DNA of 59,558 nucleotides from a virus. The notes below the pieces were generated by a model, which saw only the letters and a list, made by a program, of their open reading frames with translations, was not told the origin of the DNA and searched no databases. Where the stretch lies: the IMG/VR virus record IMGVR_UViG_3300045988_091217, positions 1 to 59,558 of that record. The stretch is one strand, 5' to 3'. Below are positions 38,948 through 56,593 of the stretch, one piece after another. Made by a program: the position numbers and the translations under genes. Positions within the stretch are counted from its first letter, which is position 1. Each line of letters starts with the position of its first letter.

Positions 38948-38957
38948 ATTGAGTATC

Positions 38958-38999
38958 CTTTTATAAAAGAACCCTCAGTTTACCGCGAAACTGAGGGTT
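38958..38999 (-). terminator. rho-independent terminator between nrdB and the lysis genes
   Basis: Minus strand: aaaccctcag tttcgcggtaaa ctgagggtt cttttat. Confidence 0.6.
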
Positions 39000-39005
39000 T
39001 ATCAA

Positions 39006-40118
39006 TTACAGGTCGAAATCAGCCAAGTCTTTGCTATCTACGGACGCGTCGACTTGCCCAATCAGGTACGATGAGATTTCAACCTCCTGCGGCGCAACCT
39101 GCACGTTGTCGGATGACAGCCATGCGTTAATCCATGAGATTGGATTCTGCGTTGATTTCGGGAACAGCATATCAAGGCCGATAGCACGCATGCGCTGGTT
39201 GGTGATGAATTCAACGTAATTGTTCAGGATGTCTTTATTCAGACCCAGCATAGAGCCGTCTTTGAACAAATAGTCAGCCCATTCTTTTTCCTGTTCGACG
39301 GCGGTTTCAAAGATTTTCACGATTTCGTCTTTGTTTTCAATCCAGATTTCCGCCATTTCAGGGTCATCTTCGCCAGTTCGCCAGTAGTTGAGGATGGTCT
39401 GAGTAACAGACAGGTGTAACGCCTCGTCACGGGCAATGAGCTTGATAATCTTAGCGTTACCCTCCATCAACTCGCGCTCGGCGAAAGCAAACGAGCAGGC
39501 AAACGAAACGTAGAAGCGGATGGCTTCCAACACGTTCACGCAGACCATACACAGCATCAAACGGCGTTTGAGTTCTTTGCGGTCATACTCCATGCCCATG
39601 TGCATACGCATTGAGTATTGAATCAGGTCATCATAGTAATCGCCGATGGCCGTTGCGCGGCGCATAATTGCATCGTTGACCATGATGTCATCCAACACTG
39701 TTGATGGGTTTGGATACACGTTTCGGATGATGTGTGTGTAGCTGCGAGAGTGGATGCCTTCGAAAAATTGCCATGCGTTGATAAACTCTTCGATTTCAGG
39801 TAGCGAGGTCAAAGGCAGGAAGGCTACCGACGGACTGCGGCCTTGAATCGAATCGAGAAGGGTTTGGTATTTCAGGTTACTGGTGAAGATATGCTTCTCG
39901 GCATCGCTGAGTTTGCCAAAGTCAATACGGTCGCGCGACAAGTCAATTTCGTCAGGTCGCCAGAAGAAGCTGATTTGTTTTTCATACATCTTGTCGAAAA
40001 ACTCATACTTCTGTTTGTCATAACGCTGTACGTTGATGTTGTTGCCGAGAAACATCGGCTCGGTTGTAGCGTCGTTTACCATTTTCGGGAAAATGGAGTA
40101 TTGGTTATTGGAATTCAC
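39006..40118 (-). CDS. nrdB: class Ia ribonucleotide reductase beta subunit
   Basis: [31 protein letters not shown] and [24 protein letters not shown] are near-identical to E. coli NrdB over long stretches. No nrdA is present in the window. Confidence 0.9.
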
Positions 40119-40311
40119 GGGAAAGACCTTTCTTTTTATTACGAAGGCGTTGTTTGCGTTTCATGGCCATGTTGTACGCCCGTTGGCAATCATGGCATCG
40201 GTAAAGGTATTGAATACCGCTCGCATAGTTTTCATTTCTGCGGTATGGGAAATTATCTTTGTTGAGTGGGTATTCAACACCGCAATTCTTGCATACACGG
40301 AATTTATCCAT
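40105..40311 (-). CDS. small zinc-ribbon protein
   Basis: CKNCG ... CHDCQ. Confidence 0.45.
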
Positions 40312-40528
40312 TTTGATATTCCTTTTTAATCACGGCCTCCCCATGCTCGTTGAAGATGATGTATGCGAGGCGTGCGAGCGGATTCTCGCGTTGGAGCTTA
40401 CCGCATTCACGACGTGCATTCTTTTCAATTTCAGGCAAGCCTTTATGATTTGCCACTGGTGTCGTGTGCGTTTCAACATACGCCTGCGCGTTGTTGTCGT
40501 ATTCCATAAAGCAGATTTTGCGTTTCAT
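40304..40528 (-). CDS. hypothetical protein
   Basis: AAGGAAAA RBS formed by the last codons of the upstream gene. Confidence 0.4.
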   Translation of the reverse strand: MKRKICFMEYDNNAQAYVETHTTPVANHKGLPEIEKNARRECGKLQRENPLARLAYIIFNEHGEAVIKKEYQNG

Positions 40529-41011
40529 TTAATTTTCCTTTTGTTCATCAAGTAGTGTTAGAACGTAGGTGATTACCTCATTAATGCGCTTACTTGCTTC
40601 CCAGTCGGAGCGTTTGGCTGCGTCATGCAGTTCTGGGGTCAAGACTTCGGGGATAAGCGCAGAAAGGTCAACCACAATATCTTCCCCATCATAATCACTG
40701 TCGTTTGCCAACAACGCCTCGACGGTAATTGATACAAGGTGTCCTTCTTTGCTAAAGTAGTACAGATAACCGCTATGAGATAAATCAATATCATGCTTAT
40801 TAAGCTGGTCAACTGCCAGACTCATGCGTTCGATGCGAAGCGACATCTCGTCGATATAAGCCTCAGTGCATTCAGCATCACAACGCAGTAAGTTATCAAT
40901 AATAAATGCAGGACTTGCACCCAATTCAAACAGAATCATGCGGAGATTATCAATGCCTCGCACAATCGCATATAACTTTCTGTGTTGCTCTTCTTTTTTG
41001 TCAATATTCAT
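40529..41011 (-). CDS. acidic ~160-aa protein, paralog of 41714-42193; function unknown
   Basis: Shared blocks HSGYLYYFSKEGH/HEGHLYFFNEDEG, LLANDSDYDGE/LLSDDTIYDGE, YVLTLLDEQKEN/YVFNHMLESDED. Confidence 0.55.
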   Translation of the reverse strand: MNIDKKEEQHRKLYAIVRGIDNLRMILFELGASPAFIIDNLLRCDAECTEAYIDEMSLRIERMSLAVDQLNKHDIDLSHSGYLYYFSKEGHLVSITVEALLANDSDYDGEDIVVDLSALIPEVLTPELHDAAKRSDWEASKRINEVITYVLTLLDEQKEN

Positions 41012-41014
41012 AAT

Positions 41015-41269
41015 TTAATACTCCTTAAACACATCATAATCTTTTGCTTCTACCACTTTCGATGGTCGGTCAATATATCGTACCCGACCTCCTCTGGTAT
41101 GAGCATACCGTTCACCGAACACAAGCAGTTTAATCTTGCCCGACTTGGTATAACCGAGATGATTGCAATACATCAAATAGCTAATCTTTGAGTTACGATT
41201 CAACGAATGCGTGCATCGCAGAAGGTACTTACCGTCCCAATAGGCTGGTTGTTCTTTACAGATTCTCAT
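41015..41269 (-). CDS. Cys/His-rich small protein, unknown
   Basis: ATGA coupled to the upstream gene. Start placed at the internal ATG MRICKEQ. Confidence 0.4.
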   Translation of the reverse strand: MRICKEQPAYWDGKYLLRCTHSLNRNSKISYLMYCNHLGYTKSGKIKLLVFGERYAHTRGGRVRYIDRPSKVVEAKDYDVFKEY

Positions 41270-41700
41270 GGCAACCCCAGTGCTTTCTTTGTAGCTTTTG
41301 TAATTCTGTCTGGCAATTCCCACTCAATCGAATCCACGACAAATCCCAACTGGCTATGGGTATAGCCCCACGTTGTAAAGCCATCTCTATCGAGCAATTT
41401 AATTAACCGTTTTTGGTTGTATTTGTAGCCGTCCCAGATGCTGATTTCGCGCGTACTACCGCATCGTTCAACGACCTCAGCACGTTTGCCGCCTTCAACA
41501 CGTTCACCACCTTGATATGGGTCAATATCAGCACTCCAGTCAATATTCAACGACATACAGCAATCATTCGCGGCATCTTTGATAATTTCAATCAACTGCG
41601 CGTAAAGAGCTTCAGTTTCACGTTTACAGGCATCTGCGAACAACTGCTGCGCAATTTCGCAATTTGTTGGTTGTTTGTTAGCATTTGCGTTATTCATCAT
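41266..41700 (-). CDS. hypothetical protein
   Basis: 144 aa, AGAGGGTG RBS. Confidence 0.4.
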   Translation of the reverse strand: MMNNANANKQPTNCEIAQQLFADACKRETEALYAQLIEIIKDAANDCCMSLNIDWSADIDPYQGGERVEGGKRAEVVERCGSTREISIWDGYKYNQKRLIKLLDRDGFTTWGYTHSQLGFVVDSIEWELPDRITKATKKALGLP

Positions 41701-41713
41701 TCACACCCTCTTT

Positions 41714-42193
41714 CTAGTCTTCGTCTGATTCAAGCATGTGGTTAAACACATAATTAATGGACTCTGATAGCTGATAAATAGCATCCGTGTTTTTGTTTTC
41801 AATACACTCATCAAGAAGCGGCTTCAACAACTTCGGCACAATTTCTTCAACGGTCAGCACGAAGGCTTCCCCGTCATATATTGTGTCATCACTGAGCAAC
41901 TCCTCAATAGTACCCCACGAAACACCTTCGTCTTCGTTAAAGAAGTAGAGGTGTCCCTCATGGGTTATTTTGCCACCAATATCCTTCAAATGACTCAACA
42001 TGGCAGAAACGCGCTTGTAGTGGTCAAGCCTGTTGAGTACATCATCATAAACGTCGTTTAACGATTTCGTATGTAGGATTTTATGAATAAAGACACCAGT
42101 CGCACCCGTGTCAATCAGGTTGTCTGTCAAACAATACTGTTCACGATTTGCTCTAAGCAACATCTCGCGCAGTTCTTCATCGGTATACGCCAT
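41714..42193 (-). CDS. acidic ~160-aa protein, paralog of 40529-41011
   Basis: See the paralog entry. Expressed from cassette copy 1. Confidence 0.55.
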   Translation of the reverse strand: MAYTDEELREMLLRANREQYCLTDNLIDTGATGVFIHKILHTKSLNDVYDDVLNRLDHYKRVSAMLSHLKDIGGKITHEGHLYFFNEDEGVSWGTIEELLSDDTIYDGEAFVLTVEEIVPKLLKPLLDECIENKNTDAIYQLSESINYVFNHMLESDED

Positions 42194-42305
42194 TTCAATT
42201 TCCTTCGTTTGTGGTTAGTTGGTGATTGAATAGTAGCAACCCTTATAAGTATTGTCAAGCAATTAAAAAGCACTTAACCGTAAAATACAGCTAAGTGCTT
42301 CATTT
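42194..42305 (-). promoter_or_regulatory. terminator-promoter-leader cassette, copy 1
   Basis: On the minus strand: hairpin aagcacttaac/ctaagtgctt plus ttttaatt, then TTGACA-17-TACTAT, then the leader ACGAAGGAAATTGAAATG. Confidence 0.6.
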
Positions 42306-42319
42306 ATTACAAAATTAAA

Positions 42320-43597
42320 TTACTGACGGATTTTCTTTTCGCTAACAACCACTGGCTCACGAACGACAACAGTTTCTTTGACAATCACCTGCTGTGGTGC
42401 GACAACTGGTTTCGGTTTTGCGCCGAAGAAGTATGCGGCACTCAAGCCGACACCAATGTTCTTGCGAGTATCAGCGGATACGCCGCCTTTGAAGCCCCAT
42501 TTGCCGTTTTCGGTAATATGTGACGCACCGATAGCGATAGCGGCTTCGTTTTTAAACGAACCTGCGCCGACAGTGATTGCGCTTTGACCCGCTTCGTAAG
42601 GCTGCATCATCGTGCCGATGGCGATAGCACCAGCGATACCAGCGTTGCTGTCGCGTCGGTTTTTGTTGATGTCGTTACGGATTGCATCGAAATTGCCTTC
42701 AACCAGCTTGTTCAGTTCGGTGATTTTGTTACGCAAGTCACGGTCACGCAGTTTCAATTCATAAATTTGCGACTCCTGCGTTTCCATCCAACCAGAGTAT
42801 TGCTGCACCGTATGATACACATTCGTGATTTGTTCGCTGTGATAATTCAGCTTAGCTACGTTGGCACTCACTTGCGTCGCGACGGCATGGAGTTGCGAGC
42901 CGTTCACCGCGTCGGTCGATGTCTTGCTAACATTGCCAGCGGCCACGTTTTGCAACTGGCGTTCGAAGCCCTTAGAGCCGATAGACACGACGGATGTTGG
43001 ACGATGACCTGCATAGTTGCCATACGTCACGCCGTCAACCGTTGTGTTAACAACGCCTTTGAAGTCGCTGGTTGTTGAGTTGAAGCCGATGGCAACACCA
43101 CTGTAATGCTCCGTCTTGGCGTTTGTACCGACAGCCGTGCTGAAACGGGCTTCAGTCGTAGCACCACTGCCAACAGCCGTAGATTGGTCGCCGCGAGCCA
43201 TTGAAGACTGACCCAGAGCCGTGCTTTGGCCGCCAATGGCGTTGGCGTGTAGACCTAATGCGGAGGAGCTATTGCCGATTGTTGTGGTATGTGCGCCCAC
43301 AGCGGTCGAGGCTGAGCCTTCAGCTAAAGTGCCTTTACCTAATGCCGTCGTGGAGTAACCCTTAGCCCACGACGCGCTGCCGAACGCCTGTGACGTAACG
43401 CCGCTGGCCTTCGCATGTGCGCCGACAGCAGTGGAGAGGTTTGCATAGGCATGTGAGTTCATACCCACTGCGGTTGCACCCGCGCCTTCAGCGGTGACGT
43501 AGTTACCAATAGCAACCGCGCTGCGACCGACTTCAGCCATAGATAATTGGGACGACGCTACGAGTGTAACGCATAATGCAATGAGAGTTTTCTTCAT
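42320..43597 (-). CDS. YadA-like trimeric-autotransporter-type adhesin (Hep_Hag repeats, coiled-coil, YadA-like beta-anchor) with signal peptide
   Basis: MKKTLIALCVTLVASSQLSMA. Repeated GATAVG/STAVGAHA/STALGKGT units. Anchor SAITVGAGSF ... NIGVGLSAAYFF, followed by a 35-aa K/P/V-rich extension. Start at the internal ATG (43597). Confidence 0.65.
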   Translation of the reverse strand: MKKTLIALCVTLVASSQLSMAEVGRSAVAIGNYVTAEGAGATAVGMNSHAYANLSTAVGAHAKASGVTSQAFGSASWAKGYSTTALGKGTLAEGSASTAVGAHTTTIGNSSSALGLHANAIGGQSTALGQSSMARGDQSTAVGSGATTEARFSTAVGTNAKTEHYSGVAIGFNSTTSDFKGVVNTTVDGVTYGNYAGHRPTSVVSIGSKGFERQLQNVAAGNVSKTSTDAVNGSQLHAVATQVSANVAKLNYHSEQITNVYHTVQQYSGWMETQESQIYELKLRDRDLRNKITELNKLVEGNFDAIRNDINKNRRDSNAGIAGAIAIGTMMQPYEAGQSAITVGAGSFKNEAAIAIGASHITENGKWGFKGGVSADTRKNIGVGLSAAYFFGAKPKPVVAPQQVIVKETVVVREPVVVSEKKIRQ

Positions 43598-43619
43598 GGT
43601 AGAACCTTTCTTTGGTAAG

Positions 43620-43808
43620 TTAAATATCGTCTTCGTCACGATGCTTAAAGCGCATCTCAACTTGACGCTGGGTTCGGCGAGCAATCACCGATTTGGGTAG
43701 CGGTTTCGGGTAAGAAAAACCGCCGTGCATGACAGCATTACGTCTGTCAAAATTACTGCGAAAGACCTTAATGTCATTCCGCGATAAACGCTTCATCGTT
43801 GTAGCCAT
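43620..43808 (-). CDS. small basic protein, unknown
   Basis: 62 aa, R/K-rich. Confidence 0.3.
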   Translation of the reverse strand: MATTMKRLSRNDIKVFRSNFDRRNAVMHGGFSYPKPLPKSVIARRTQRQVEMRFKHRDEDDI

Positions 43809-43809
43809 A

Positions 43810-44382
43810 TTATTCCTGTTCAGCTAAGTATTTAGTAACATGGGTAATATACTCGATTTGACGAATACAGTCTTCATAGGCGTTATGCGTTGTAGCAGAC
43901 ACTGACCGCTGTAAGCGAGGGAACATCTCGCCGATTGTTCGGAGTGAGCGGCAATCACGCACTTCCCAGAAGTTAATGAGTGTTGCTTTTGGGTCAACCA
44001 AACGATTAAAGGCGTTATTCAGGACGTCAGTATCGAACGTACCAGTGTTCCATACAAGCAAGCCTCCATCATTACGGGCAGCATCAAACAACTCCTTCAT
44101 ACGCCGCAGTGTGTCAACCAATGCTTGCTTCTCGGTAGGGTTGAGTAACTTGGCGAGATAGCCGCGATTGGTTTTGTACCACCAAGCAAGTGTGTCAGTG
44201 CTAGTGTGTGAACGTGGTTGCTCATCCAATCCATGTCTTACATGGAAGCTCTTAGAGTTGTATACCGTACCAGTTACGGGGTGAAAGCAAGCCAATGCCG
44301 TTTCCAAGATATGCGCATTTGATTGAGATGACAGTGTTTCCAAGTCAACCATGAAATGCTGTTTTGTGAGAATAGCTTTCAT
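43810..44382 (-). CDS. DEDDh 3'-5' exonuclease (DnaQ-like)
   Basis: FMVDLETLS (Exo I) and HNAYEDCIRQ (Exo III). Confidence 0.6.
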   Translation of the reverse strand: MKAILTKQHFMVDLETLSSQSNAHILETALACFHPVTGTVYNSKSFHVRHGLDEQPRSHTSTDTLAWWYKTNRGYLAKLLNPTEKQALVDTLRRMKELFDAARNDGGLLVWNTGTFDTDVLNNAFNRLVDPKATLINFWEVRDCRSLRTIGEMFPRLQRSVSATTHNAYEDCIRQIEYITHVTKYLAEQE

Positions 44383-44383
44383 T

Positions 44384-44737
44384 TCAATTTCTTTCTTTGA
44401 GTTTAGATTTGCATGTTTCCAACATTCCGATTAACGTGTCGAGTTCCTCTTCGGCTAAGTCGGCAAACGCAAAAGCAGTTTCAGTACCGTATCCAGTGAT
44501 AGGATGACAAACATCTTCGCGTGTATGTTCGATGCTGATACGAACCAATCCGTGTTCGCTTGGAGGAGACGCAATCTCTACGCGCAAACTGCTTTGATGT
44601 GTTGCGGTCACGCCGTCACGATTAGTGCCATGCCAGAACATAACTTCCATTTCGTCTTTGTATTTCATATCACATACCCACATCGAATTTCTTGAATTTG
44701 TCTTTAAACTCACGCATCGGGCGTGTGTAGACGACAC
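44384..44737 (-). CDS. hypothetical protein
   Basis: ORF on the minus strand within the operon. Confidence 0.35.
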   Translation of the reverse strand: MSSTHARCVSLKTNSRNSMWVCDMKYKDEMEVMFWHGTNRDGVTATHQSSLRVEIASPPSEHGLVRISIEHTREDVCHPITGYGTETAFAFADLAEEELDTLIGMLETCKSKLKERN

Positions 44738-44933
44738 CTGTTGATTCAGAGCGATATACTGCTTGCTCCAAGCCAGATACTTCCGAACGGGCGGTCAGGA
44801 GCAGTCGGTACAGGCCGCCTTTGCAGTATTCGTAGAGTTCGAAATCGTGTTTGCTTTTACCAAACAACGGTGAGCTTTTCACTTTACACTTAGCTGGAAT
44901 GCAGAGCATCCCTTTCAATGCTTTCATAACCAT
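44670..44933 (-). CDS. hypothetical protein with cassette-type leader
   Basis: Start at ATG 44933, preceded by AACAAAGGAAATTGAAAATG. Confidence 0.4.
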   Translation of the reverse strand: MVMKALKGMLCIPAKCKVKSSPLFGKSKHDFELYEYCKGGLYRLLLTARSEVSGLEQAVYRSESTGVVYTRPMREFKDKFKKFDVGM

Positions 44934-44955
44934 TTTCAATTTCCTTTGTTTGTTG

Positions 44956-45333
44956 TTAATCGTGTTCAATGGTGTAACCGTTGTTAAGGAAGTCGTAGTT
45001 AACTAATACTTCTCGAATCATTTCTTGCAAAATCTTCTCCTCTTCGAGAGACATTTCATCATTGCGGAAGTAATAATCTAAGTCTTCAGGTGAATCCTCT
45101 AACTCAAGACTTTCAATGTTATATTTCCGACCTCCCATCGGAGGGTTTATTGTGCTAAAAGGGGAGGTTACACTCACTTCACAGTCCGCGCTGTACCAAG
45201 TTAAGGTTACAGCACATCCCCGTCGTTCAACACCAGTATTCTCGTCCTTGAAATATACATCTGGGTCGATGTATACCGTGCATACAGGGCTTGTGTTCTT
45301 TACCATTGCCTTGAGTTGGTTAAATTTTGCCAT
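44956..45333 (-). CDS. hypothetical acidic protein
   Basis: Start at ATG 45333 with leader AAGGAAATTGAAAATG. Expressed from cassette copy 2. Confidence 0.45.
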   Translation of the reverse strand: MAKFNQLKAMVKNTSPVCTVYIDPDVYFKDENTGVERRGCAVTLTWYSADCEVSVTSPFSTINPPMGGRKYNIESLELEDSPEDLDYYFRNDEMSLEEEKILQEMIREVLVNYDFLNNGYTIEHD

Positions 45334-45446
45334 TTTCAATTTCCTTCGTTTGTTGTCGGTTGATGAGTGAATACTATACATCCCTATAAGTATTGCCAAG
45401 CAATTAAAAAGCACTTAGCCGCAAAATAGAGCTAAGTGCTTCATTT
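45334..45446 (-). promoter_or_regulatory. terminator-promoter-leader cassette, copy 2
   Basis: Hairpin aagcacttagc/gctaagtgctt plus T-run, then TTGGCA-17-TAGTAT, then the leader. Confidence 0.6.
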
Positions 45447-45460
45447 AATAGGGTATTAAG

Positions 45461-47137
45461 TTACAAATAATTTATTGTAAGAACCCTGTTTCGTTGAATA
45501 ACCGTATTCGCCGACACGCTGTTATCAAGCCAGTTGGCACGAACTTGGTTAATCAGAGACTGCGTATAGATGTCGTTGTCGGTAAAGCTGATTTGCGCAG
45601 CGGGATTGCCGACGTAGAATCGTGATGTCGGACGGCCGAAATCAGCAGGCAAGTGCAACTGGTTATTACGGAAGAACAGTTTATCGGCAGCTTTCAACGA
45701 TGTTGCTTTAGTCACTGTATTTTTCGAAGTAACCTTAGCGATGTTGTTTTCGATGATGACGCTATGGTCATTTGCCGCATTGCTGTTCTCTTCGACGTAG
45801 AAAGGCACGCCGTCGCAGTATTCACATCCCAGTTCATTATCGGAGAATGTGAAGTCACCCAAGCCGTATTTGACAACAGGGGCTTTGGCAAACGCCGACA
45901 GGAAGGATGTTAGTCTACCATTACCTGTGATGCGGTTGCGTCGAATCTTAACGACAGGCTTGGCTTCTTGGTCGTTGTTGCGATATTCGATACACCAGTA
46001 AGAACCGCGCTGAATAGTGTCGATTTTATTCATGCCTTCAATGGTGTTGTCTTCGATAATGACTTCTGGATTAACCTGTGTAACCCAAGTTTGCCATGGC
46101 TGTTGCTTAATCTCAATGCGGATACCACTCTCGCGATAATAGTCCATATTCAAGTCAAGCTGCGCGCCTTCAGCAACGTTTTCATCGCGCTCCAGAACAA
46201 ACGTGCCGTCAAAGTGAATGCTGTTACGCACGAATCGAATGTATGCCACTGGGTATTGGCGATTCTCGTAGGCGAAACCATGCAGGCGGTTGTCGAGGAT
46301 GTTGTTCTCTTCGGCGATGAAGTCAACTGCATCATGGGAATCAAGACCCTTGCGGTAGTTGCGCTCAAGTTTGTTACCCTTAATCATGCTGTTCAAGCCG
46401 AAGTTGAGCGAGCCTGATAGAGCGGTAATACCATAGCCAGTGCCGCCGTTGGCCTCATGGCCGTTGTGATGGCAATAGTTGTTGAATGCTTGGAAGTCTT
46501 TCTGCCAAGCATACGCGATGCCAGCCACGCGGTTGTGATGCGAATGGCATTCGATGGCTCGATTACCACTGGCCTTAATAGTCGCCTCACGCAACTGGTC
46601 GAGGGTAATAGTGCCTTTCTTAAACTGCTCACCCAGAGCGACAACCTCACCGTTGTGGGAGGTAAAGAAGATACCGATGCGGTTAGAGCCTTTCGATTCT
46701 ACGCGCTGAACCAGACCGTTGGTAGTATCGACCATCATGATATTCATAACAGAACCGCGATAAGTCTCGCCTTTCCAGTGGAAAGTGCCTTTGTACTCGA
46801 TGCTGAAATCTTCCAGCGTTACGTCGGGAAGGCTGTCGACGATGACACCGCACCACTTACGCGCGTCTGTTTTGTTCGTGTTCGCGTCCCAGTTTTCAGG
46901 CTGCTCCCAGCTATAAACGATATTGGTTTTGCCCATACCAGCACCCTTGATACCACGAATACCAGTATGGCGTTCGTCCATACGGATTTGCTCATCCAGT
47001 GTGTATGTGCCTTCACCGAACTCAATGAAGGTCTTTGTTGCTGCGGCGCATTCAATCGCCGTCTTAATCGCCTGACTGTCGCTCATGCCGAGTGCTTTGA
47101 GCAGGTCGACTTTTACATATCCGATTTCACAAGACAT
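45461..47137 (-). CDS. right-handed beta-helix (pectate-lyase-fold) protein; polysaccharide depolymerase/tailspike-like
   Basis: N-terminal IKTAIECAAATKTFIEFGEGTYTL. Repeated xxDNxI rungs (IEDNTIEG, IENNIAKV, FTDNDIY, FSDNELG). Start at ATG 47137 with a CAGGAG RBS. Confidence 0.6.
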   Translation of the reverse strand: MSCEIGYVKVDLLKALGMSDSQAIKTAIECAAATKTFIEFGEGTYTLDEQIRMDERHTGIRGIKGAGMGKTNIVYSWEQPENWDANTNKTDARKWCGVIVDSLPDVTLEDFSIEYKGTFHWKGETYRGSVMNIMMVDTTNGLVQRVESKGSNRIGIFFTSHNGEVVALGEQFKKGTITLDQLREATIKASGNRAIECHSHHNRVAGIAYAWQKDFQAFNNYCHHNGHEANGGTGYGITALSGSLNFGLNSMIKGNKLERNYRKGLDSHDAVDFIAEENNILDNRLHGFAYENRQYPVAYIRFVRNSIHFDGTFVLERDENVAEGAQLDLNMDYYRESGIRIEIKQQPWQTWVTQVNPEVIIEDNTIEGMNKIDTIQRGSYWCIEYRNNDQEAKPVVKIRRNRITGNGRLTSFLSAFAKAPVVKYGLGDFTFSDNELGCEYCDGVPFYVEENSNAANDHSVIIENNIAKVTSKNTVTKATSLKAADKLFFRNNQLHLPADFGRPTSRFYVGNPAAQISFTDNDIYTQSLINQVRANWLDNSVSANTVIQRNRVLTINYL

Positions 47138-47160
47138 GTTCAACTCCTGTGTTGATAACA

Positions 47161-47197
47161 AAAAAAAACAACTCACAGTTTACACTATGAGTTGTTT
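47161..47197 (-). terminator. rho-independent terminator upstream of the beta-helix gene
   Basis: Minus strand: aacaactcatag ... ctgtgagttgtt followed by tttttttt. Confidence 0.65.
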
Positions 47198-47202
47198 TAA
47201 CA

Positions 47203-47577
47203 CTAGGCTTGAGTCTGTGAGGCGTATACCTGCAACACGCACGACAGGTCTTCTTTAGACACGCCATGCTTCTCAGCGGCGGCGTTCAGGTCTACAAGGG
47301 CTTCTGTAATCAGCACGACCAATGCGTCGTCAGTCAAGTCTTTAACCTTCTCCGATACGTTGGCACATTTGCGGATTTTGCCGATACCAATCAGATGATT
47401 CTTGAGTTTAACCGCATCGGTGAGCAACAGGCGCACTTGGTCGATATGGGTGTTCGGCACAACCAATACAGTCTGGCTGTCTTTCGGGTTTGAACCTACG
47501 CGCAGCGTAGTTGCACTGTCGTCAACGATGGCGTGATATTGGCCGTAAGACAGGGTTTTCGCTTGAGTACAAGTCAT
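47203..47577 (-). CDS. hypothetical protein
   Basis: 124 aa. TAATG overlap with the dut stop. Confidence 0.4.
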   Translation of the reverse strand: MTCTQAKTLSYGQYHAIVDDSATTLRVGSNPKDSQTVLVVPNTHIDQVRLLLTDAVKLKNHLIGIGKIRKCANVSEKVKDLTDDALVVLITEALVDLNAAAEKHGVSKEDLSCVLQVYASQTQA

Positions 47578-48020
47578 TATTTCACCCCTGTGCTACCGAA
47601 GCCGCCTTCACCGCGTTCAGTGTTGGATAATTCGTCGGCTTCTTCGAAAGATACCTGCTCAACAGGGATAATCATTGCTTGAGCAATGCGCTCACCGACA
47701 CAAGGCATACCGTGAATATCAGTGCTAGACTTGCGCAGTTTGACGCACACTTCGCCGCGATAATCAGCATCGATAACGCCTGTGCTGTTCGCCAGTGTAA
47801 TGCCATACTTGAAGCCGTGACCGCTGCGGCTGTAAACCATCATCACATGGCCTTCAGGCACTTCAAACTGCAAACCTGTACCGTAGGTTACAGTGCGTTC
47901 ACCGTTGTCGTCAGTCGTGTCGATAATGTTTGCCGCATACAGGTCAAAACATGCCGCGCCCTTGCTACCATATACAGGCACTTTCGCTTCTGCATCAATC
48001 TTCTTAATCTTAACATTCAT
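47577..48020 (-). CDS. dut: dUTP pyrophosphatase
   Basis: GVIDADYRGE and RGEGGFGSTG motifs. Start at MNVKIK with a GGAGA RBS. Confidence 0.85.
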   Translation of the reverse strand: MNVKIKKIDAEAKVPVYGSKGAACFDLYAANIIDTTDDNGERTVTYGTGLQFEVPEGHVMMVYSRSGHGFKYGITLANSTGVIDADYRGEVCVKLRKSSTDIHGMPCVGERIAQAMIIPVEQVSFEEADELSNTERGEGGFGSTGVK

Positions 48021-48366
48021 TGTCGTCTCCATATAAACCCGTCAGGGGTTGTTTTAAAAATCTGTCGACTAAAGCCATGCCGATTTTAGTCTTAATGTAA
48101 CGGCGGCACAACTCTTTGAAGTAGGTACGCTGCATACGGAATTGGCCTGTTACTGGTGCAAAGATAACACCTTCTTCACCCAGATTATCGAGTTTCACAC
48201 GCTCGCCGAAACTGAGGCATCTGAGGTCAACGACCTCGCCTTCGATGAATGTGAGCAGCAGATATTCCTCGAATTCCATTTGGCGTTTGCTGGTGTCGTT
48301 GATAACCCCGAACAATTCGTCGTTGAACTGCCGACGGGCGCAACCGCAGTCATTAGTGGATTCCAT
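48010..48366 (-). CDS. hypothetical protein
   Basis: Start at ATG 48366 after an AAGGAG RBS. Confidence 0.4.
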   Translation of the reverse strand: MESTNDCGCARRQFNDELFGVINDTSKRQMEFEEYLLLTFIEGEVVDLRCLSFGERVKLDNLGEEGVIFAPVTGQFRMQRTYFKELCRRYIKTKIGMALVDRFLKQPLTGLYGDDNEC

Positions 48367-48655
48367 CCCATCGACTCCTTTCCCAGTCACAAGTCAGACT
48401 GGTTTGCTTAACATGTTCGTACTGCGACTTCAAACCGAGACAATGCACAACGCGATTCGTATCATACATCACTTCGTATTCGACCAGACGGTATGCTGTA
48501 TTTGGAACACCACCTGCCGAGACAACCTTGACTTTTTGGTCGGCTTTTTGTACAGGCGCATCGCTGTCATGTGTCTGACTGTTCGGATGGCAGGCCGTAG
48601 TCGCAAACGTGACGTACAGCACACACGCCAGTAATTTTAAACTTTTACTCATCAT
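48353..48655 (-). CDS. putative lipoprotein
   Basis: MMSKSLKLLACVLYVTFATTAC is a signal peptide plus lipobox-like Cys. Its start overlaps the thyX-like stop. Confidence 0.45.
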   Translation of the reverse strand: MMSKSLKLLACVLYVTFATTACHPNSQTHDSDAPVQKADQKVKVVSAGGVPNTAYRLVEYEVMYDTNRVVHCLGLKSQYEHVKQTSLTCDWERSRWDGIH

Positions 48656-49463
48656 ATAACCCTTCGTCTTCCAGAATAGCGCGGTATGGCTTCCAGTTGC
48701 GGAAATTACGGTTCTCATTGCGATACTTTTCACCGTCGTTGAACATGGCCTGATGGTCGAAGGGTGACATGTGACCTGCTTCAATCAGACGGTCGGCTAG
48801 TGCGAAGTCTTCATCAATGGAAGGCGTTTGTTTGTTGTGATTCAGGTAGGAAACACGGGCGCAGCGTGCCGCTGAAATTTTCGCCCGTTGAGCATACGTC
48901 CATCGTAAGCAATCGTTTTCCTCTTCGCGCAGATAGGGGAGATGGAAAATTCGTTCAACAGGAACGGATTCGTCCATTGCCTTCTTAATCGCTTTTGCCA
49001 GTGCTTGAATTTCAGGCTGCGCGTCGTCAGCAATGCGCAGTTTGAAGAAGTTATCCCACTCGGTTGCAGTGATAATGGTTTCCGCCCACATGAATGGTTC
49101 AAGGATGCGGTTGACAACCTGCTTATGCACGCCGATTTCGGCGAGTTCTTGAGCAATGTTAGCGGCAGTGTCAGCGGCTTCCATCCAGACAGTCTTGGCT
49201 GCTGCGATACGCGCGTCATCCATCTCGGTTTCAGCCACCATACCTGCTTGGTTCTGACCCCAATGTACGGGAACGACTGGTTCGTTGCGAATCATCTCAA
49301 TCAGCTTTGCTGTTGGAACGGCACGGCTGGACGCTGTACTGCGGCTGAAGACGCGATGGGTATTCAGTTGGGGCAGGATAAAGCGTGGATATTTCACCTG
49401 CACAGAGGTGATACGATGACGACCGTCCGCGATGCTGTCGGCGATTACTTGGCATTCAATCAT
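48645..49463 (-). CDS. ThyX-like (Thy1 family) flavin-dependent thymidylate synthase homolog, divergent
   Basis: RHRITS and NTHRVFSRSTASSRA resemble the ThyX RHRxxxxxxxSxRY signature. PFMWAETIITATEWDNFFKLR resembles the ThyX central block. A GHMSPFDH block lies near the C-terminus rather than the N-terminus. Confidence 0.5.
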   Translation of the reverse strand: MIECQVIADSIADGRHRITSVQVKYPRFILPQLNTHRVFSRSTASSRAVPTAKLIEMIRNEPVVPVHWGQNQAGMVAETEMDDARIAAAKTVWMEAADTAANIAQELAEIGVHKQVVNRILEPFMWAETIITATEWDNFFKLRIADDAQPEIQALAKAIKKAMDESVPVERIFHLPYLREEENDCLRWTYAQRAKISAARCARVSYLNHNKQTPSIDEDFALADRLIEAGHMSPFDHQAMFNDGEKYRNENRNFRNWKPYRAILEDEGLYDE

Positions 49464-49677
49464 TTTTAGTTTCCTTTTCTTTAGGGGCTACTTTTGTGTA
49501 CAAGAGATGTGAGTGTACGATGAGACACGCCAGCATAAAGAAGAGCGACACGAGATACACGATAATATCGCTAATGCCTTTAGCGGCGAACAGTTTGTTC
49601 AGCAGTTGTGCATCAACGTAGAAGAGCAGCAAAAATACTGCGATGTTTTTGATGATAAAGAGTGCATTTACTTTCAT
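49456..49677 (-). CDS. small two-TM membrane protein
   Basis: Hydrophobic 73-aa ORF. Confidence 0.4.
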   Translation of the reverse strand: MKVNALFIIKNIAVFLLLFYVDAQLLNKLFAAKGISDIIVYLVSLFFMLACLIVHSHLLYTKVAPKEKETKND

Positions 49678-49678
49678 T

Positions 49679-49930
49679 TTATTTTACCTTTCGGATGATG
49701 AGTTTTGAGAATTTGTCGTCGATTTCAGCGAAGCCGACAACGTAATTAATATTGTACCAACTCTTAATAGCGTCAGCGATGACATCGTCGCTATCTTTAA
49801 CGGGGTCAATGGGTATATCGGAACAGGCCATAAAATCATAATTTCTGGCCAATTCGTTGACCTTATCATGGATGTCTTCGGTTGGAAACACTGCGTTGTT
49901 GAGCAGTAGCATGACCTCATATTCATTCAT
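49679..49930 (-). CDS. hypothetical acidic protein
   Basis: Expressed from cassette copy 3. Confidence 0.4.
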   Translation of the reverse strand: MNEYEVMLLLNNAVFPTEDIHDKVNELARNYDFMACSDIPIDPVKDSDDVIADAIKSWYNINYVVGFAEIDDKFSKLIIRKVK

Positions 49931-50045
49931 TCAATCTTTTCCTTTGTTTGTTGTTAGTTGGTGATTAAATAATACTGATGCTATTAAGTATTGTCAAGCA
50001 ATTAAAAAGCACTTAGCCGTAAAATAGAGCTAAGTGCTTCATTTA
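49931..50045 (-). promoter_or_regulatory. terminator-promoter-leader cassette, copy 3
   Basis: Hairpin aagcacttagc/gctaagtgctt plus T-run, then TTGACA-17-TATTAT. Confidence 0.6.
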
Positions 50046-50053
50046 TCAGAGTA

Positions 50054-50755
50054 TTAAATTTTGCCGAAATCGACGTGTTTTTGCAGTTTCCGTTCCAATT
50101 CTGAAATATCCTGCGTGTTGTAGACAATCAGATAGTCATGCCACTGTCCGCCGCTGATTTTAACTGTTCCAGACTGACCGTCATCATTATCGTCAATAAT
50201 CAGTTCTGCGAACTCTTCACTGCTATGACTATTGACGGATGGAACATCGCGGTAAATACCAATTAGCAGGTCACAGATAGCAGCCTCATTTTCAAAGCGA
50301 ACGTCTGGGATAATGACATCCTTATATGAATTTTGCATAAGACGAACAAAGAAATCGTCCTTACAAAAGCGGAAATATTCAGTGCCGAGTAACTGCATAA
50401 ATTTGCGCGGTGATAACTGTTCGTATGGAGCAGGATATTCACCATGCTCCGCGTCGATAAATACATGGTAGATGTAGTCGTAAAAGATTTTCTCATCTTT
50501 GGTGATGGCCTGAACTTCTTCAGTCTTCAAGAACGGAATCAACCAGCCTTCGCGCAGTTTGTCAAAACCTTCAACACCAAAGGGCATTGGTGTTTCTTTC
50601 TTATCGCGCTCCAAGCAATCATCGCCGAAGACGAACTTGGCTGCTTCATGTAAAGGCCGTGCAAAAGATACAATCGGCATGTTTTTGAGTTTGCTTAAAA
50701 TTTGAGCAGCTGTGTCTTTACCCACGCCTGCTTTACCAACTAAACCGATAATCAT
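50054..50755 (-). CDS. deoxynucleoside monophosphate kinase (T4 gp1-like P-loop kinase)
   Basis: P-loop IGLVGKAGVGKDT. AAGGAAAA RBS. Confidence 0.55.
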   Translation of the reverse strand: MIIGLVGKAGVGKDTAAQILSKLKNMPIVSFARPLHEAAKFVFGDDCLERDKKETPMPFGVEGFDKLREGWLIPFLKTEEVQAITKDEKIFYDYIYHVFIDAEHGEYPAPYEQLSPRKFMQLLGTEYFRFCKDDFFVRLMQNSYKDVIIPDVRFENEAAICDLLIGIYRDVPSVNSHSSEEFAELIIDDNDDGQSGTVKISGGQWHDYLIVYNTQDISELERKLQKHVDFGKI

Positions 50756-50826
50756 GATATTTTCCTTATGCTAAGTGTTTGTATTAAACCGCTCAGTCTT
50801 TTAAAACCGAGCGGTTGATTCGGGAT

Positions 50827-50973
50827 TTAGATTTTGCAAGCACCGCCCGCGCAACCATCATCCTCTGCTGTTTCGGGGTCAAAACCACCTTCAACAACTA
50901 CGCCTTCGACGGCATCCAGCGCGTCGAGGTTATCCATATCGAACATATCGTCGTTCTTTTGTTCAGTAGACAT
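50827..50973 (-). CDS. 48-aa highly acidic peptide ending GCAGGACKI, TAATG-coupled to the upstream gene
   Basis: Hand translation: MSTEQKNDDMFDMDNLDALDAVEGVVVEGGFDPETAEDDGCAGGACKI. Missed by the 60-aa ORF cutoff. Confidence 0.4.
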   Translation of the reverse strand: MSTEQKNDDMFDMDNLDALDAVEGVVVEGGFDPETAEDDGCAGGACKI

Positions 50974-51806
50974 TACAAGTCCTCCAATTCATCATCTGAA
51001 ACATTATTGCCTGCAACGACCACTTCCTCTTCAGGTTGAGGAGGTACGTCGTTCACAAAGCCCTTAGCCGCATTATACGCTAACCACGCAATCAGTGGGG
51101 CTTGTTCGAACACATATTCTGCGCCGAAACGTGTCGTATACTCCATAGCGGCTTTGTAGTCGCTATGCTCGGTCACAACGTCGTCCGTTGCGTTATACAT
51201 CCAGATAACCTGTTTCACGCCTTGCCATACATTGATTGACGGCATTCCGTAATTGGTGAAATGCGTCGGCTTTGGCGGCTCGGCTGCTGAACCGCGATAA
51301 TCCGAACCAGCATCACTCATATACGCAAGTGCAGATACAAGGCCAATTTGATACTGGTCTTCGGACGGCTCGAAATCTGGGTCGTCTTGCTGATTGACGA
51401 CAAAAACCTTTTGAGATTTGCTATCCCAGAAGAATTTAACCGATTCCAGTTCAAAGCCGAACCATTTTTCAATGAGCATTTGCCATGTATCAGACGTGCT
51501 TTTGGAGGCAGCGGAATCACCAGCAAAACACTCTTCTTCCTTGATGGAATTCTTGATGTCATGCAACGAGTAGATACGCACGCCTTTACCGCCGTACACG
51601 CTGTCTGCGTTGGTGTAAAAGGCAACATTCATACCAGTAATCAGCGCAGAATTCAACGCGCTAGTGTGTTCCAGTGGGAACTCTGGAATGAATACGCTTT
51701 CGCCTTTGCCTAAGCGTTTATCCTGAAGCTGCTGGGCGATATTGGCAATGGCCGACGTTGTTAACGGATAAGCCACGCCGCTGTCATAGGGTAAATGTAA
51801 TGACAT
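50973..51806 (-). CDS. hypothetical protein ending in acidic ...SDDELEDL
   Basis: 277 aa. The C-terminal motif is shared with the primase-helicase and the 10190 protein. Confidence 0.45.
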   Translation of the reverse strand: MSLHLPYDSGVAYPLTTSAIANIAQQLQDKRLGKGESVFIPEFPLEHTSALNSALITGMNVAFYTNADSVYGGKGVRIYSLHDIKNSIKEEECFAGDSAASKSTSDTWQMLIEKWFGFELESVKFFWDSKSQKVFVVNQQDDPDFEPSEDQYQIGLVSALAYMSDAGSDYRGSAAEPPKPTHFTNYGMPSINVWQGVKQVIWMYNATDDVVTEHSDYKAAMEYTTRFGAEYVFEQAPLIAWLAYNAAKGFVNDVPPQPEEEVVVAGNNVSDDELEDL

Positions 51807-51810
51807 AGTA

Positions 51811-52707
51811 TTAACCTTTCGCTTCTTTAAGCAGCTTCAGAATATCAATACATATCTGCGTATCAATAAACCACTTACCGCGTTTATCGTCAACGGTTTT
51901 ATCAGCAGTCGTAGCCTTCGCAGGTTCAGGTTTAATCTGAGACACGACGGCCTTGTCGTTGATGACACATGTACAACTGCCAACCAAGTCAAACATTGCC
52001 GAGCGAACCCGATTGTTAGGATTCTTCATGATGGCAATACGGGCTTCGGAAAGCTCATAATCACCGCTGTATCGCACACGCATGCCAGTAACACTGTCTT
52101 CATACGCAACCATACCAGCAACGCCACCGTAATCTACACTGCTTACCTGTTCCCATAACCATGAAGACATGCCTTCCGTGTTAAACGGACGTACGGAGAA
52201 ATCGCTCAATGTGAGCAGCAACTGACCGACCACATGGTCTGCAATCTTCTGCGAAGACGTACCAATTAGAACATAACCTTCGTCAATCAGGAACAGAACA
52301 GGTACGACGGTTGTCTTGATAGGCGCAGTCGGAAGTTTTGCCATGAGATAGTCTTCCTTCCATTCCTGACGCAGTTTGCGAGGAGCGTTTTCGTTACCAG
52401 TGTCAAGGCAATACTCTTTCTCTTTTTCCTTGACGTAATCGCGCACAGATGTCGCAGGAATTACGCGTTCGCGGATAACGACATGGAGTTCGGCCTTCTT
52501 GTAGTCTCCACCGATTACAGGAAAGTCGTCTTCGGCTTCGCCGAATACAACCACGCCGTCTTCAACTTCGTCGGGATACAGACATGGATGTGGCGCAATA
52601 TAAGTTACGGTTGAAGCCAAACCTTGAGGCTCAATCGGTTTGAGATTTGCCTTCAGACCGCCGAACACAACGTCGCTTGTGAGTTGATAGGGGGTAAATG
52701 CTTTCAT
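51811..52707 (-). CDS. RdgC-like recombination-associated protein
   Basis: About 300 aa. N-terminal MKAFTPYQL resembles RdgC MAFTP. Start at ATG 52707 with an AAGGAG RBS. Confidence 0.4.
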   Translation of the reverse strand: MKAFTPYQLTSDVVFGGLKANLKPIEPQGLASTVTYIAPHPCLYPDEVEDGVVVFGEAEDDFPVIGGDYKKAELHVVIRERVIPATSVRDYVKEKEKEYCLDTGNENAPRKLRQEWKEDYLMAKLPTAPIKTTVVPVLFLIDEGYVLIGTSSQKIADHVVGQLLLTLSDFSVRPFNTEGMSSWLWEQVSSVDYGGVAGMVAYEDSVTGMRVRYSGDYELSEARIAIMKNPNNRVRSAMFDLVGSCTCVINDKAVVSQIKPEPAKATTADKTVDDKRGKWFIDTQICIDILKLLKEAKG

Positions 52708-52717
52708 GGCTTGCTCC

Positions 52718-53179
52718 TTAAAGCTCAATGGTTACAGAGTTGACGCGTTTCCATACCGTTTCGTCGAAGAATGGTTGGAAGCATGTTTGGAATGTGCCGA
52801 CATAGAGTGGGTATTGACCGATTTCAAATTCAACGGTTGCTTCTTTGACAATCGTGCCACAAGTCGGGTTGATGGCCAACACAATCACACCAGTCACTTT
52901 ATTTTCAAACAAAGCAGGGTATTTGTTGACATCGGCTTCTTCAATCATCTCATCCACGCTGTTGGTTTCGAACTCGCGGACTGCTTCAATGCCTTTTTCG
53001 GTGAGGCCGTAGTGGGTTGAATTGCCGAAGTCTTGGGTGATTTTCAACAGACGTTGCTCCAACAGACGCATCATTTGAAGGAACTGAGTTTCTGGAAGGG
53101 TTACGTCGACGATGATGCGTTTGTTTGGGTCATCAACCAACGGTTTCAGCAGTTCGTAATCTTGTTTATTGATAGCCAT
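52718..53179 (-). CDS. hypothetical protein
   Basis: AGGAGAAATCC RBS. Confidence 0.4.
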   Translation of the reverse strand: MAINKQDYELLKPLVDDPNKRIIVDVTLPETQFLQMMRLLEQRLLKITQDFGNSTHYGLTEKGIEAVREFETNSVDEMIEEADVNKYPALFENKVTGVIVLAINPTCGTIVKEATVEFEIGQYPLYVGTFQTCFQPFFDETVWKRVNSVTIEL

Positions 53180-54035
53180 GGATTTCTCCTAATTGTTTAA
53201 GGGGTTTGAGGATAATACGCCGAATTCCTACTAATTCGAGCGTTGTTTTACAGTGGTAGCATACTTCTTTTGCCCCGTATACTTCCATCCAACTGTTTTC
53301 AAAATCAGGCTCGTATACGCGTGCCTTATACTTCAGAAGAGCGGCCAGTTCTGCATGGGATGGCTGCTGGCATTGCTCAACACACTTTTCGTAACCTTGA
53401 TTAATGCTTTGCCCTTTGCGTGGGCAGATGTGTTGTGCCGGTTGCTTCTTGATACCGTTTGTGCCTAAGAACACACCGTGAGGAGTATGCAGCGCAGCAA
53501 TGATTGTTTTGTCATAGCATGGATGCAAGCCATCCTTTTGGTGAATATCCTGCATAATCAAAAAGGTTCGTTTTCTGAAAGAGTCCGCTCTTTCTTGGAG
53601 ACGAGCTTCCTTTTTTGCAAGCGGCGTTGTTATTGCTTTGACTAAATCGTCAATCAAATCAGTGTTGTTGGGGTATAAGGATTCGTCCAATTTATTTTGC
53701 GGTTTGCCTACCGTTTTAGCGTACCCATTAGGCTGCGTTTCACCCGATTTATTTTGCGGTTTGCCTAGCATTTTCGCATTTAAGTTTGCCATTTCGATGC
53801 GATATTCGGCTTCCTTGCAAATTGTTTCAGCAAACTCACGCGGTTCGTGAATAATATCAATAGGCAGCATCATCAAGATTTCATCAACACCAGCACCATT
53901 CTGCGCCGCTACAATAAATCGGTCGTAGGCTGCGTTGCCGATTGCTCGGATATTAGCCGCCTGCTGTATCATTCGTTTAGCCGCGTCGATGTTATCAACC
54001 ATGATTGCGGCAACATTAATACCTTCGATAGCCAT
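53166..54035 (-). CDS. two-domain protein: N-terminal unknown domain (with internal GKPQNK tandem repeat) fused to C-terminal CMP/dCMP deaminase zinc-binding domain
   Basis: SHAELAALL ... CYHCKTTLELVGIRRI is an HAE/PCxxC-type pattern. A 21-bp exact direct repeat lies at about 53700-53790. Confidence 0.55.
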   Translation of the reverse strand: MAIEGINVAAIMVDNIDAAKRMIQQAANIRAIGNAAYDRFIVAAQNGAGVDEILMMLPIDIIHEPREFAETICKEAEYRIEMANLNAKMLGKPQNKSGETQPNGYAKTVGKPQNKLDESLYPNNTDLIDDLVKAITTPLAKKEARLQERADSFRKRTFLIMQDIHQKDGLHPCYDKTIIAALHTPHGVFLGTNGIKKQPAQHICPRKGQSINQGYEKCVEQCQQPSHAELAALLKYKARVYEPDFENSWMEVYGAKEVCYHCKTTLELVGIRRIILKPLKQLGEIHGYQ

Positions 54036-54037
54036 TA

Positions 54038-54427: not shown

Positions 54428-54456
54428 ATTATTGAGTGTCGTGTAAGGATTGTCAA
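54428..54456 (-). promoter_or_regulatory. leftward promoter (TTGACA-17-AATAAT on minus strand)
   Basis: Minus strand: ttgaca atccttacacgacactc aataat. Confidence 0.45.
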
Positions 54457-54554
54457 GATTTAAATTTCAATTATTGCAAATATCGTTGTTTTAATTCGAA
54501 ATTAATTTGTTTTAAAGGCGATTTACTCGTATTGAATTGTGCCGCATTTATAAT

Positions 54555-56564: not shown

Positions 56565-56593
56565 TTAAATCTCAAATATTTTAATTATAATAC

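Follow-up and report, generated by a model that had tools for sequence, protein, structure and literature searches.

A repeated putative terminator-promoter-leader cassette at sites of small-gene turnover in the genome of a lambda-like siphovirus

The sequence of an uncultivated phage in IMG/VR record IMGVR_UViG_3300045988_091217 (59,558 nucleotides (nt); this whole stretch is called the window below) carries on its minus strand three nearly identical intergenic sequences, which are named here cassettes A, B and C. What does such a sequence do between genes that are unrelated to each other, and why is it kept in several copies? An earlier note on this DNA had described each copy as a succession of terminator, promoter and leader, and had regarded it as a portable expression module typical of independently acquired moron genes. 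Comparison of the window with its relatives agrees with the anatomy and points to another role. Each copy is probably a composite terminator/promoter/translation-leader cassette; the three copies would split a leftward operon of ~16 kb and would also be hot spots of small-gene turnover.

A repeat search of the window finds one family with three copies and a length of 131 nt (42193-42323, 45334-45464 and 49932-50062, minus strand). Two of the copies are 84% and 81% identical to the reference copy over the 131 nt, and the three near-identical elements described previously are thus confirmed. The 30-mer AAGTGCTTTTTAATTGCTTGRCAATACTTA occurs three times, compared with zero occurrences expected from 100 shuffles. 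The copies are oriented as the genes are and extend from the upstream stop codon as far as the ATG of the downstream gene. As they are intergenic and lie between unrelated upstream and downstream genes, paralogous coding sequence, which the earlier note had kept in view as another source of the similarity, is excluded, and this candidate was rejected. On the minus strand the element starts at or just after the upstream stop codon with the hairpin AAGCACTTAGC..GCTAAGTGCTT, which is followed by TTTTTAATTGC, a -35 box, 17 nt of spacer, a -10 box and a shared CA-rich leader, ..CAACAAAC(G/A)AAGGAA.., that leads to the ATG of the next gene. The -35 box is TTGACA (TTGGCA in copy B), and the -10 box is TACTAT, TAGTAT and TATTAT in copies A, B and C, respectively. 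AAGGAA stands 5-9 nt before the ATG in every copy.

Cassette A (42194-42323) connects the gene of a YadA-like adhesin (stop codon 42320-42322) to open reading frame (ORF) 159 (ATG 42191-42193). Its hairpin arms are at 42286-42300 and 42268-42282, its T-run and AT-rich tract at 42259-42267, the -35 box at 42253-42258, the -10 box at 42230-42235 and the predicted leader at ~42194-42223. Cassette B (45334-45464) lies between the gene of a 558-residue β-helix protein (stop codon 45461-45463) and ORF125 (ATG 45331-45333); here the arms are at 45431-45441 and 45409-45419, the T-run at 45400-45408, the -35 box at 45394-45399, the -10 box at 45371-45376 and the leader at ~45334-45364. Cassette C (49931-50062) separates the deoxynucleoside monophosphate (dNMP) kinase gene (stop codon 50054-50056) from ORF83 (ATG 49928-49930), with arms at 50029-50039 and 50007-50017, the T-run at 49998-50006, the -35 box at 49992-49997, the -10 box at 49969-49974 and the leader at ~49931-49962. 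The transcripts are predicted to start at ~42223, ~45364 and ~49962, about 7 nt past the -10 boxes. All these features are on the minus strand.

Pattern scans of IMG/VR and of metagenome assemblies yielded about 55 loci, representing ~22 non-redundant contigs of ~56-61 kb. These ~22 relatives are collinear with the window at 70-95% identity. Each of them has the cassette at the three positions known from the window, behind the kinase gene (C), the β-helix gene (B) and the adhesin gene (A), and the upstream gene at each cassette is the same in every relative with coverage. The comparisons below are based on an alignment of 28 copies (A2), on 46 distinct copies overall from ~22 genomes and, for base pairing, on 24 distinct rows. 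How strongly the element is held can be seen in IMGVR_UViG_3300008346_000005, in which the flanks are 72-81% identical to those of the window and the protein of the downstream ORF is 51% identical, and the cassette is almost unchanged. Outside this clade the cassette has not been found in the other viral contigs and other phage groups searched, and no equivalent repeated cassette occurs in the first 50 kb, which were scanned, of the 57.8-kb record of Klebsiella phage Soft. A metagenome match, L042, has neither hairpin nor cassette and is due to chance. A search of 185,579 bacterial and archaeal species genomes did not find the cassette core, which argues that the cassette is neither derived from the host nor a prophage element.

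The hairpin has a stem of 13-16 base pairs (bp), and the minimum free energy of the three window copies is -17.6 to -23.7 kcal/mol (z -4.1 to -6.7). Across the 24 distinct rows pairing is kept in 96.9% of the stem cells. Five pairs vary on one side, and each of them is preserved as G.U; one pair switches from G-C to A-U. In 27 of the 28 aligned copies the minus-sense RNA folds more stably than its antisense counterpart (mean -19.4 versus -14.6 kcal/mol), because the G.U pairs become A.C mismatches on the other strand. This strand-specific stability points to a structure of the transcribed RNA and not to a symmetric DNA site. The stem is followed by a run of T residues, which is five long in 41 of the 46 distinct copies and corresponds to 4-7 U in the range of copies found. 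A G+C-containing stem-loop followed by a U-tract, on the transcribed strand and downstream of a stop codon, is the arrangement of a Rho-independent terminator, and the hairpin is predicted to be one. In two copies, L059-A (1397-1413) and L039-B (3072-3088), the loop and the inner stem are inverted relative to all other copies and the outer stem is kept; the two inversions are independent. A search of Rfam with 41500-50500 at E <= 1 matched zero families. The hairpin arm resembles AAGTGC.., yet there is no enrichment of Neisseria or Pasteurellaceae DNA uptake sequences. Apart from the cassettes, the arm AAGCACTTAGC occurs with one mismatch five times in the window (20292, 36245, 50770, 51058 and 57009; about 1.1 expected), and none of these sites is paired.

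The promoter part is strictly maintained in its spacing. The -35 box is TTGACA in 45 of the 46 distinct copies, the sole exception being copy B of the window, and the spacer is 17 nt long in all 46, although its ten 3' nucleotides come in 25 versions. The -10 box is TA-N-TAT or TATGAT, so that variation is confined to position 3, or to position 4 in TATGAT; these are the positions of a -10 box known to matter least. The AT-rich TTTTTAATT precedes TTGACA, and the flanks of the -35 box are invariant in the 28-copy alignment (AATTGC before it and ATACTTA after it). In a consensus scan the three cassettes, together with a site at 54456, are the best minus-strand sigma-70 matches within the block of minus-strand genes. 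Such a pattern is expected of a working sigma-70 promoter under purifying selection, and the predicted regulatory role is well supported by the comparison of sequences. The site at 54456 is the first promoter of the block, TTGACAATCCTTA..AATAAT (54428-54456, minus strand); it has the same extended -35 region, TTGACAATNCTTA, as the cassettes and a similar AAACAAAAGGA leader, and it has no hairpin. A MotA-dependent middle promoter (the PmSL variant) was considered as well and rejected, as the TGCTT within AATTGCTTGACA is 21 nt before the -10 box and about 12 nt is required.

The leader is predicted to have almost no structure, its minimum free energy (-0.6 to -1.3 kcal/mol) being weaker than that of most shuffled sequences. 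The same leader also occurs alone, as the 27-nt sequence CAACAAACAAAGGAAATTGAAAATG at 44930-44956 (minus strand) in front of ORF87 (44670-44933). This copy is 96% identical to 45330-45356 and is accompanied by neither hairpin nor promoter. The fourth copy proposed to drive the gene starting at 44933 is therefore real, and from its sequence it can drive translation, not transcription. The similar start contexts that had been pointed out at 31247 and 57102 exist too, as AAGGAAATTNAAAATG at 31234-31249 and 57089-57104. The sequence upstream of them is unrelated to the cassette, and AAGGA is the general Shine-Dalgarno motif of this phage, found at 24 of 66 gene starts, so these two contexts are read as ordinary ribosome-binding sites rather than as cassette copies.

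From these data a likely course of events at each cassette can be outlined. RNA polymerase arriving from the upstream gene would encounter a Rho-independent terminator, formed by the 13-16-bp RNA hairpin and the following UUUUUAAUU, and the incoming transcript would be stopped just past the upstream stop codon. The same T/A-rich tract would then serve a second time by providing a sigma-70-type promoter (TTGACA, 17 nt, TAnTAT) with its AT-rich upstream region, and from this promoter a new transcript would be launched about 30 nt before the next ATG. The CA-rich and structure-free leader with its AAGGA Shine-Dalgarno motif would allow the first gene to be translated efficiently. The three cassettes and the hairpin-less promoter at 54456-54428 would thus cut the ~16-kb leftward block, presumably of early and metabolic genes, into four separately initiated units. 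Because a sequence of ~120 nt is repeated, the copies might further recombine among themselves and with copies in co-infecting relatives; gene conversion would keep them nearly identical, and the leader would become the constant left-hand border for the gain, loss and exchange of small genes. The adhesin, the β-helix protein and the kinase, which the earlier note had placed in the units separated in this way, are each the final gene of a unit closed by a cassette; the units themselves contain several genes each, mostly of core nucleotide metabolism.

The genes on the two sides of the cassettes behave differently. Among the relatives it is the small ORFs downstream of the cassettes that vary, not the adhesin, β-helix or kinase genes upstream, and sequence conservation falls steeply right past each ATG. 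The first gene after cassette C is ORF83 (49679-49930), that after cassette B is ORF125 (44956-45333), and that after cassette A is ORF159 (41714-42193), all on the minus strand; none of these first genes has a Pfam or PHROG match at E <= 0.001. ORF159 is homologous yet highly divergent among the relatives. At position C most relatives have an ORF of 130-132 codons between the leader and the homologue of ORF83, which is lacking in the window and in two others. At position B there is either ORF125 or an unrelated ORF115, or ORF125 is absent, and an ORF of 55 codons (ORF55) is present or absent; all four combinations of ORF125 or ORF115 with and without ORF55 have been found, and each module is preceded by the leader CAACAAAC(G/A)AAGGAA. 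On its right-hand side the replaceable ORF125/ORF115 module is joined at the leader-only copy, which is also where ORF55 is inserted in relatives. In one genome cassette B is fused directly and precisely, leader to leader, to ORF87, and others have it fused within the 3' portion of ORF87. Among the insertion and deletion (indel) sites of the minus-strand block, positions B and C and the leader-only copy show the most polymorphism.

The element is reused three times, and its copies also exchange sequence with each other. Two genomes have B copies that belong to the C type. The C copy of the window is a chimera, the 3' part of which, AATCACCAACTAA, is of the type otherwise found at position A. 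IMGVR_UViG_3300008565_000041 has B and C copies that do not differ over ~120 nt and that have in common a private spacer and a run of four T residues, one T having been deleted.

Several observations weigh against this interpretation. On the side of the terminator, three of the 46 distinct copies have only four T residues, and a generic terminator scan did not list the cassette hairpins. The scan probably missed them because two basal A-U pairs consume part of the T-run and leave UUUAAUU after the stem; we treat the miss as technical and keep it as a caveat. The cassette stem is conserved in sequence and not in structure alone, and its loop is nearly invariant. An ordinary intrinsic terminator 2 kb away (47165-47198, minus strand; 15-bp stem, T9), which precedes the β-helix gene and serves as an internal control, evolves by compensatory substitutions over the same divergence. 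That the cassette stem keeps its sequence while its neighbor drifts suggests a constraint beyond simple termination, which might be gene conversion, a second role as an upstream element of the promoter or a binding factor. On the side of gene turnover, cassette A has no indel immediately downstream, and indels also occur at about eight sites that have no cassette, so that selection for expression could by itself account for junctions at the ATG. The copies cluster mainly by position (identity 0.904 versus 0.86), from which it follows that homogenization, or conversion, is occasional. The mean rank correlation (rho) of pairwise distances across cassettes is 0.32 (n=6), compared with 0.47 elsewhere (n=43), so that discordance at the cassettes does not clearly exceed that of the rest of a block that is mosaic as a whole. 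Homologues of ORF130 occur only behind cassette C of the same phage clade, and a search for ORF125 in other contexts gave zero matches. No module was found at two positions or in a second phage group, which leaves the movement of modules from one position or phage group to another unsupported. Given the cassette-free indels, the result of the distance test in a mosaic block and the confinement of each module to one position, a role of the cassette as a recombination joint is plausible but not proven, and homology between cassettes, beyond selection for expression, would be only the putative cause of the junctions.

A more specific possibility, to which we give a small chance, is that the cassette is a sequence-specific site of recombination or exchange, a phage counterpart of the attachment sites of integrons that would serve small orphan genes, recognized by a phage protein or by a structure-specific nuclease. 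This would explain the hairpin that is conserved in sequence beside a drifting terminator, the inversion of its center on at least two occasions and the two copies of one genome identical over 120 nt. The conservation of the palindrome can also be accounted for by a DNA operator, if a dimeric regulator of the phage or the host binds AAGCACTTAGC-N11-GCTAAGTGCTT and switches the three promoters together, termination being incidental. The palindrome center (column 47 of alignment A2) is about 61 nt upstream of the predicted start (column 108), which is the position of a class-I activator; arms and loop are nearly invariant in the 46 distinct copies while the nearby terminator drifts, and the invariant flanks of the -35 box fit a binding site as well. 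The one-sided substitutions, however, are all transitions that keep G.U pairs on the minus-sense RNA only and would break the symmetry of the DNA. The 54456 promoter has the extended -35 region yet no palindrome, paired half-sites are found nowhere else in the genome, where there are only single matches with one mismatch, two inversions of the palindrome center are tolerated, and in every copy the hairpin comes directly past a stop codon and is followed by the T-run. We regard it as unlikely that the palindrome acts mainly as an operator. It is also rather unlikely that the promoter and leader are functional and the hairpin only stabilizes an RNA 3' end or is a processing site for RNase III or RNase E on a read-through transcript. 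The strand-specific pairing, the short and interrupted U-tract (UUUUUAAUU, with 4 U in some copies) and the failure of the generic scan to flag the hairpin would all be compatible with stabilization or processing, whereas a stem of this length and stability followed by 4-7 U is canonical for intrinsic termination, and the length of the T-run is itself conserved.

Morons of lambdoid phages consist of a promoter, a gene and a terminator and are inserted between two genes that in relatives are direct neighbors. It is very improbable that the cassettes are portable modules that arrived with independently acquired morons (the adhesin, the β-helix protein and the kinase). The raised G+C content of the adhesin gene (55% versus 45%), an unusual gene for a phage, and the terminators that bracket the β-helix gene would fit such an origin, as does the presence of autonomous units bounded by promoter and terminator and of an accessory, possibly host-derived gene, the YadA-like adhesin. 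The cassettes, however, lie downstream of these genes and supply them with a terminator, not a promoter, and the dNMP kinase belongs to the core set of nucleotide metabolism. The three genes and the three cassettes are in place in every relative with coverage, a synteny that contradicts the moron origin given in the earlier note. Its idea of a portable or mobile unit is not borne out by the searches of other phage groups, cultured phage records and the 185,579 bacterial and archaeal species genomes. Unlike morons, the units here contain several genes and are conserved throughout the relatives; what is repeated is the regulatory joint itself, and the variable genes use the promoter of the cassette and bring none of their own. 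A selfish or neutral dispersed repeat, similar to a miniature inverted-repeat transposable element or left over from a duplication and devoid of a regulatory role, would account for the exchange between copies and for the inverting palindrome. Such a repeat is hard to reconcile with the maintenance of the -35 and -10 boxes, their exact spacing, the T-run and the Shine-Dalgarno motif around a stretch of 10 nt that varies freely, or with copies that are always in the orientation of transcription, fit exactly from stop to start and occupy three fixed positions. Neither target-site duplications nor terminal inverted repeats are present at the three copies, and we consider a repeat of this type extremely improbable. 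The composite cassette of terminator, promoter and leader remains the reading that we prefer.

Elements of comparable design, the promoter-early stem-loops (PeSLs), are known from the T4-like myoviruses RB49/phi1, T4/PST and KVP40/nt-1 (Arbiol et al. 2010, PMC2839356; Comeau et al. 2014, PMC4122927). PeSLs are composites of ~100 bp that contain a stop codon, an AT-rich tract, a sigma-70 promoter, a stem-loop with G-T pairs and a Shine-Dalgarno sequence with ATG; their promoter and terminator activities have been demonstrated experimentally, they adjoin variable orphan ORFs, and they recombine with each other, as chimeric elements, deletions and mini-circles show (PMC2839356, PMC4122927). In the literature searched, nearly all discussion of them concerns T4-like or other large myoviruses. 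The cassette likewise lies intergenically from stop to start and has an AT-rich tract, a sigma-70-like -35/N17/-10 promoter, a stem-loop with G-T pairs and a Shine-Dalgarno motif with the start codon at its 3' end. It too is present in several copies per genome, oriented as the genes and beside small ORFs of no known function that differ between close relatives, with indels and replacements joined at the element and with chimeric copies. The differences are that the genome here is of siphovirus type and ~59.5 kb long, not that of a T4-like myovirus, and that three copies occupy fixed positions, whereas PeSLs are many and dense across hyperplastic regions. A core of ~60 nt is almost invariant across genomes here, whereas PeSLs share mainly the promoter consensus and the type of stem; the leader is a part of the repeat and also occurs alone; and cassette and PeSLs have no sequence homology. 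The activities of PeSLs have been measured, those of the cassette are predicted. By analogy, the cassette appears to be PeSL-like and functionally equivalent, a known kind of element now seen in a lambda-like siphovirus. According to the authors of the PeSL work, morons accrete independently of conserved flanking sequences.

The turnover at the cassette leaders can also be compared with that in lambdoid phages, whose short conserved intergenic sequences at module borders are possible homologous crossover points between unrelated genes, much as the leader may be here. In the modular theory and the comparisons of HK620 with other lambdoid phages, such boundary or linker sequences are proposed to mediate modular exchange. 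The linker in the present phage differs in being a full terminator-promoter-leader that is repeated within one genome, and preferential crossover at it is indicated indirectly. Ordinary tandem junctions, in which an intrinsic terminator is followed by a re-initiating sigma-70 promoter and the T-tract doubles as the AT-rich upstream region, resemble it in design; they are normally unique sequences, whereas a near-identical unit of ~125 nt is used here three times and is kept across a whole phage clade.

If this interpretation is correct, cassettes of the PeSL type are not confined to T4-like myoviruses and also organize transcription and orphan-gene turnover in a lineage of small lambda-like siphoviruses, found in metagenomes, some of which carry sample numbers in the style of the Human Microbiome Project. 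The cassette would be a compact and strongly constrained natural part, with the predicted functions of a terminator, a strong promoter and an unstructured leader in about 125 nt, and its ~22 natural variants could be used as a ready-made mutational scan of the promoter positions that are free to vary. It would also mark where the clade stores its fastest-changing genes, which are candidates for functions in host takeover or anti-defense.

An exact repeat of 55 nt is present at both ends of the window (1-55 and 59504-59558), and the window is therefore read as a complete phage genome that was assembled circularly or is terminally redundant. Its G+C content is 45%. It encodes a lambda-type large terminase, a portal, a major capsid protein, a protein similar to primases and helicases, and enzymes of nucleotide metabolism. 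The portal is 52% identical to those of siphoviruses of ~58-60 kb such as Klebsiella phage Soft (Casjensviridae), one of the closest cultured phages when judged by this protein. The terminase and portal, both of the lambda family, identify the phage by sequence as a lambda-like siphovirus of ~59.5 kb. Zero megablast matches to 41000-51000 were obtained among cultured phage records, and no cultured phage is close at the DNA level.

From 37794 to 54394 every gene is on the minus strand. This block encodes dCMP-deaminase-like and RdgC-like proteins, the dNMP kinase, thymidylate synthase, dUTPase, an exonuclease and the small subunit of ribonucleotide reductase, followed by the endolysin and spanin; the β-helix protein of 558 residues and a complete trimeric autotransporter of the YadA type are encoded there too, alongside many small ORFs that have no annotation. 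The kinase gene (50054-50755; phrog_139, E 6e-38) closes the unit that ends at cassette C. The β-helix gene (45461-47137) has a weak match to right-handed β-helices; it is preceded by the ordinary terminator (47198-47165) and followed by cassette B, and it lacks a sigma-70-like promoter of its own. The adhesin gene (42320-43597) is the last before cassette A, and its product is complete, with head, stalk and membrane-anchor domains above the Pfam cut-offs. The consensus scan found no promoter directly upstream of either the β-helix or the adhesin gene. The G+C content rises to 55% in the center of the adhesin gene and is 48-51% in the β-helix gene and 40-43% in the small downstream ORFs. The raised value of the adhesin gene suggests an old foreign origin of that gene, unrelated to the repeat. 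Neither the adhesin nor the β-helix protein has a close homologue in cultured phages, and the adhesin has none in the bacterial species genomes searched; the bacterial genomes searched with the adhesin to identify a host gave zero matches. Between the genes of the ribonucleotide reductase small subunit and the endolysin there is a further hairpin with a T-run (38957-39012, minus strand), so that the lysis genes also follow a terminator, one without an obvious sigma-70 promoter.

The block contains some further differences between relatives at places that have no cassette. The exonuclease gene (43808-44392) is missing in one relative, ORF144 (41269-41713) is absent from many, and at 48367-48667 the window has 299 nt that are missing from five loci. 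ORF160 (40529-41011, minus strand) is a paralogue of ORF159 (29% identity, E 6e-15), and relatives have one or two more copies of this family in an insert of 444-894 nt at 40524/40528, which is missing from the window.

On the plus strand, a gene for tRNA-Pro (TGG) is found at 5318-5394, and a second, unrelated repeated promoter cassette is present at 54890-54978 and 56533-56621 (80% identity over 89 nt). It consists of an AT-rich tract, TTGTCA-16-TATAAT and a CA-rich leader with AAAGGA, has no hairpin, and precedes the genes that start at 55020 and 56663. The divergent control region between the minus-strand and plus-strand blocks contains three tandem repeats of 36 bp (..CCCCTAGACAGGCYGTCTYCCGATATARAATTTT..) at 54549-54656, which could be iterons or operator sites.

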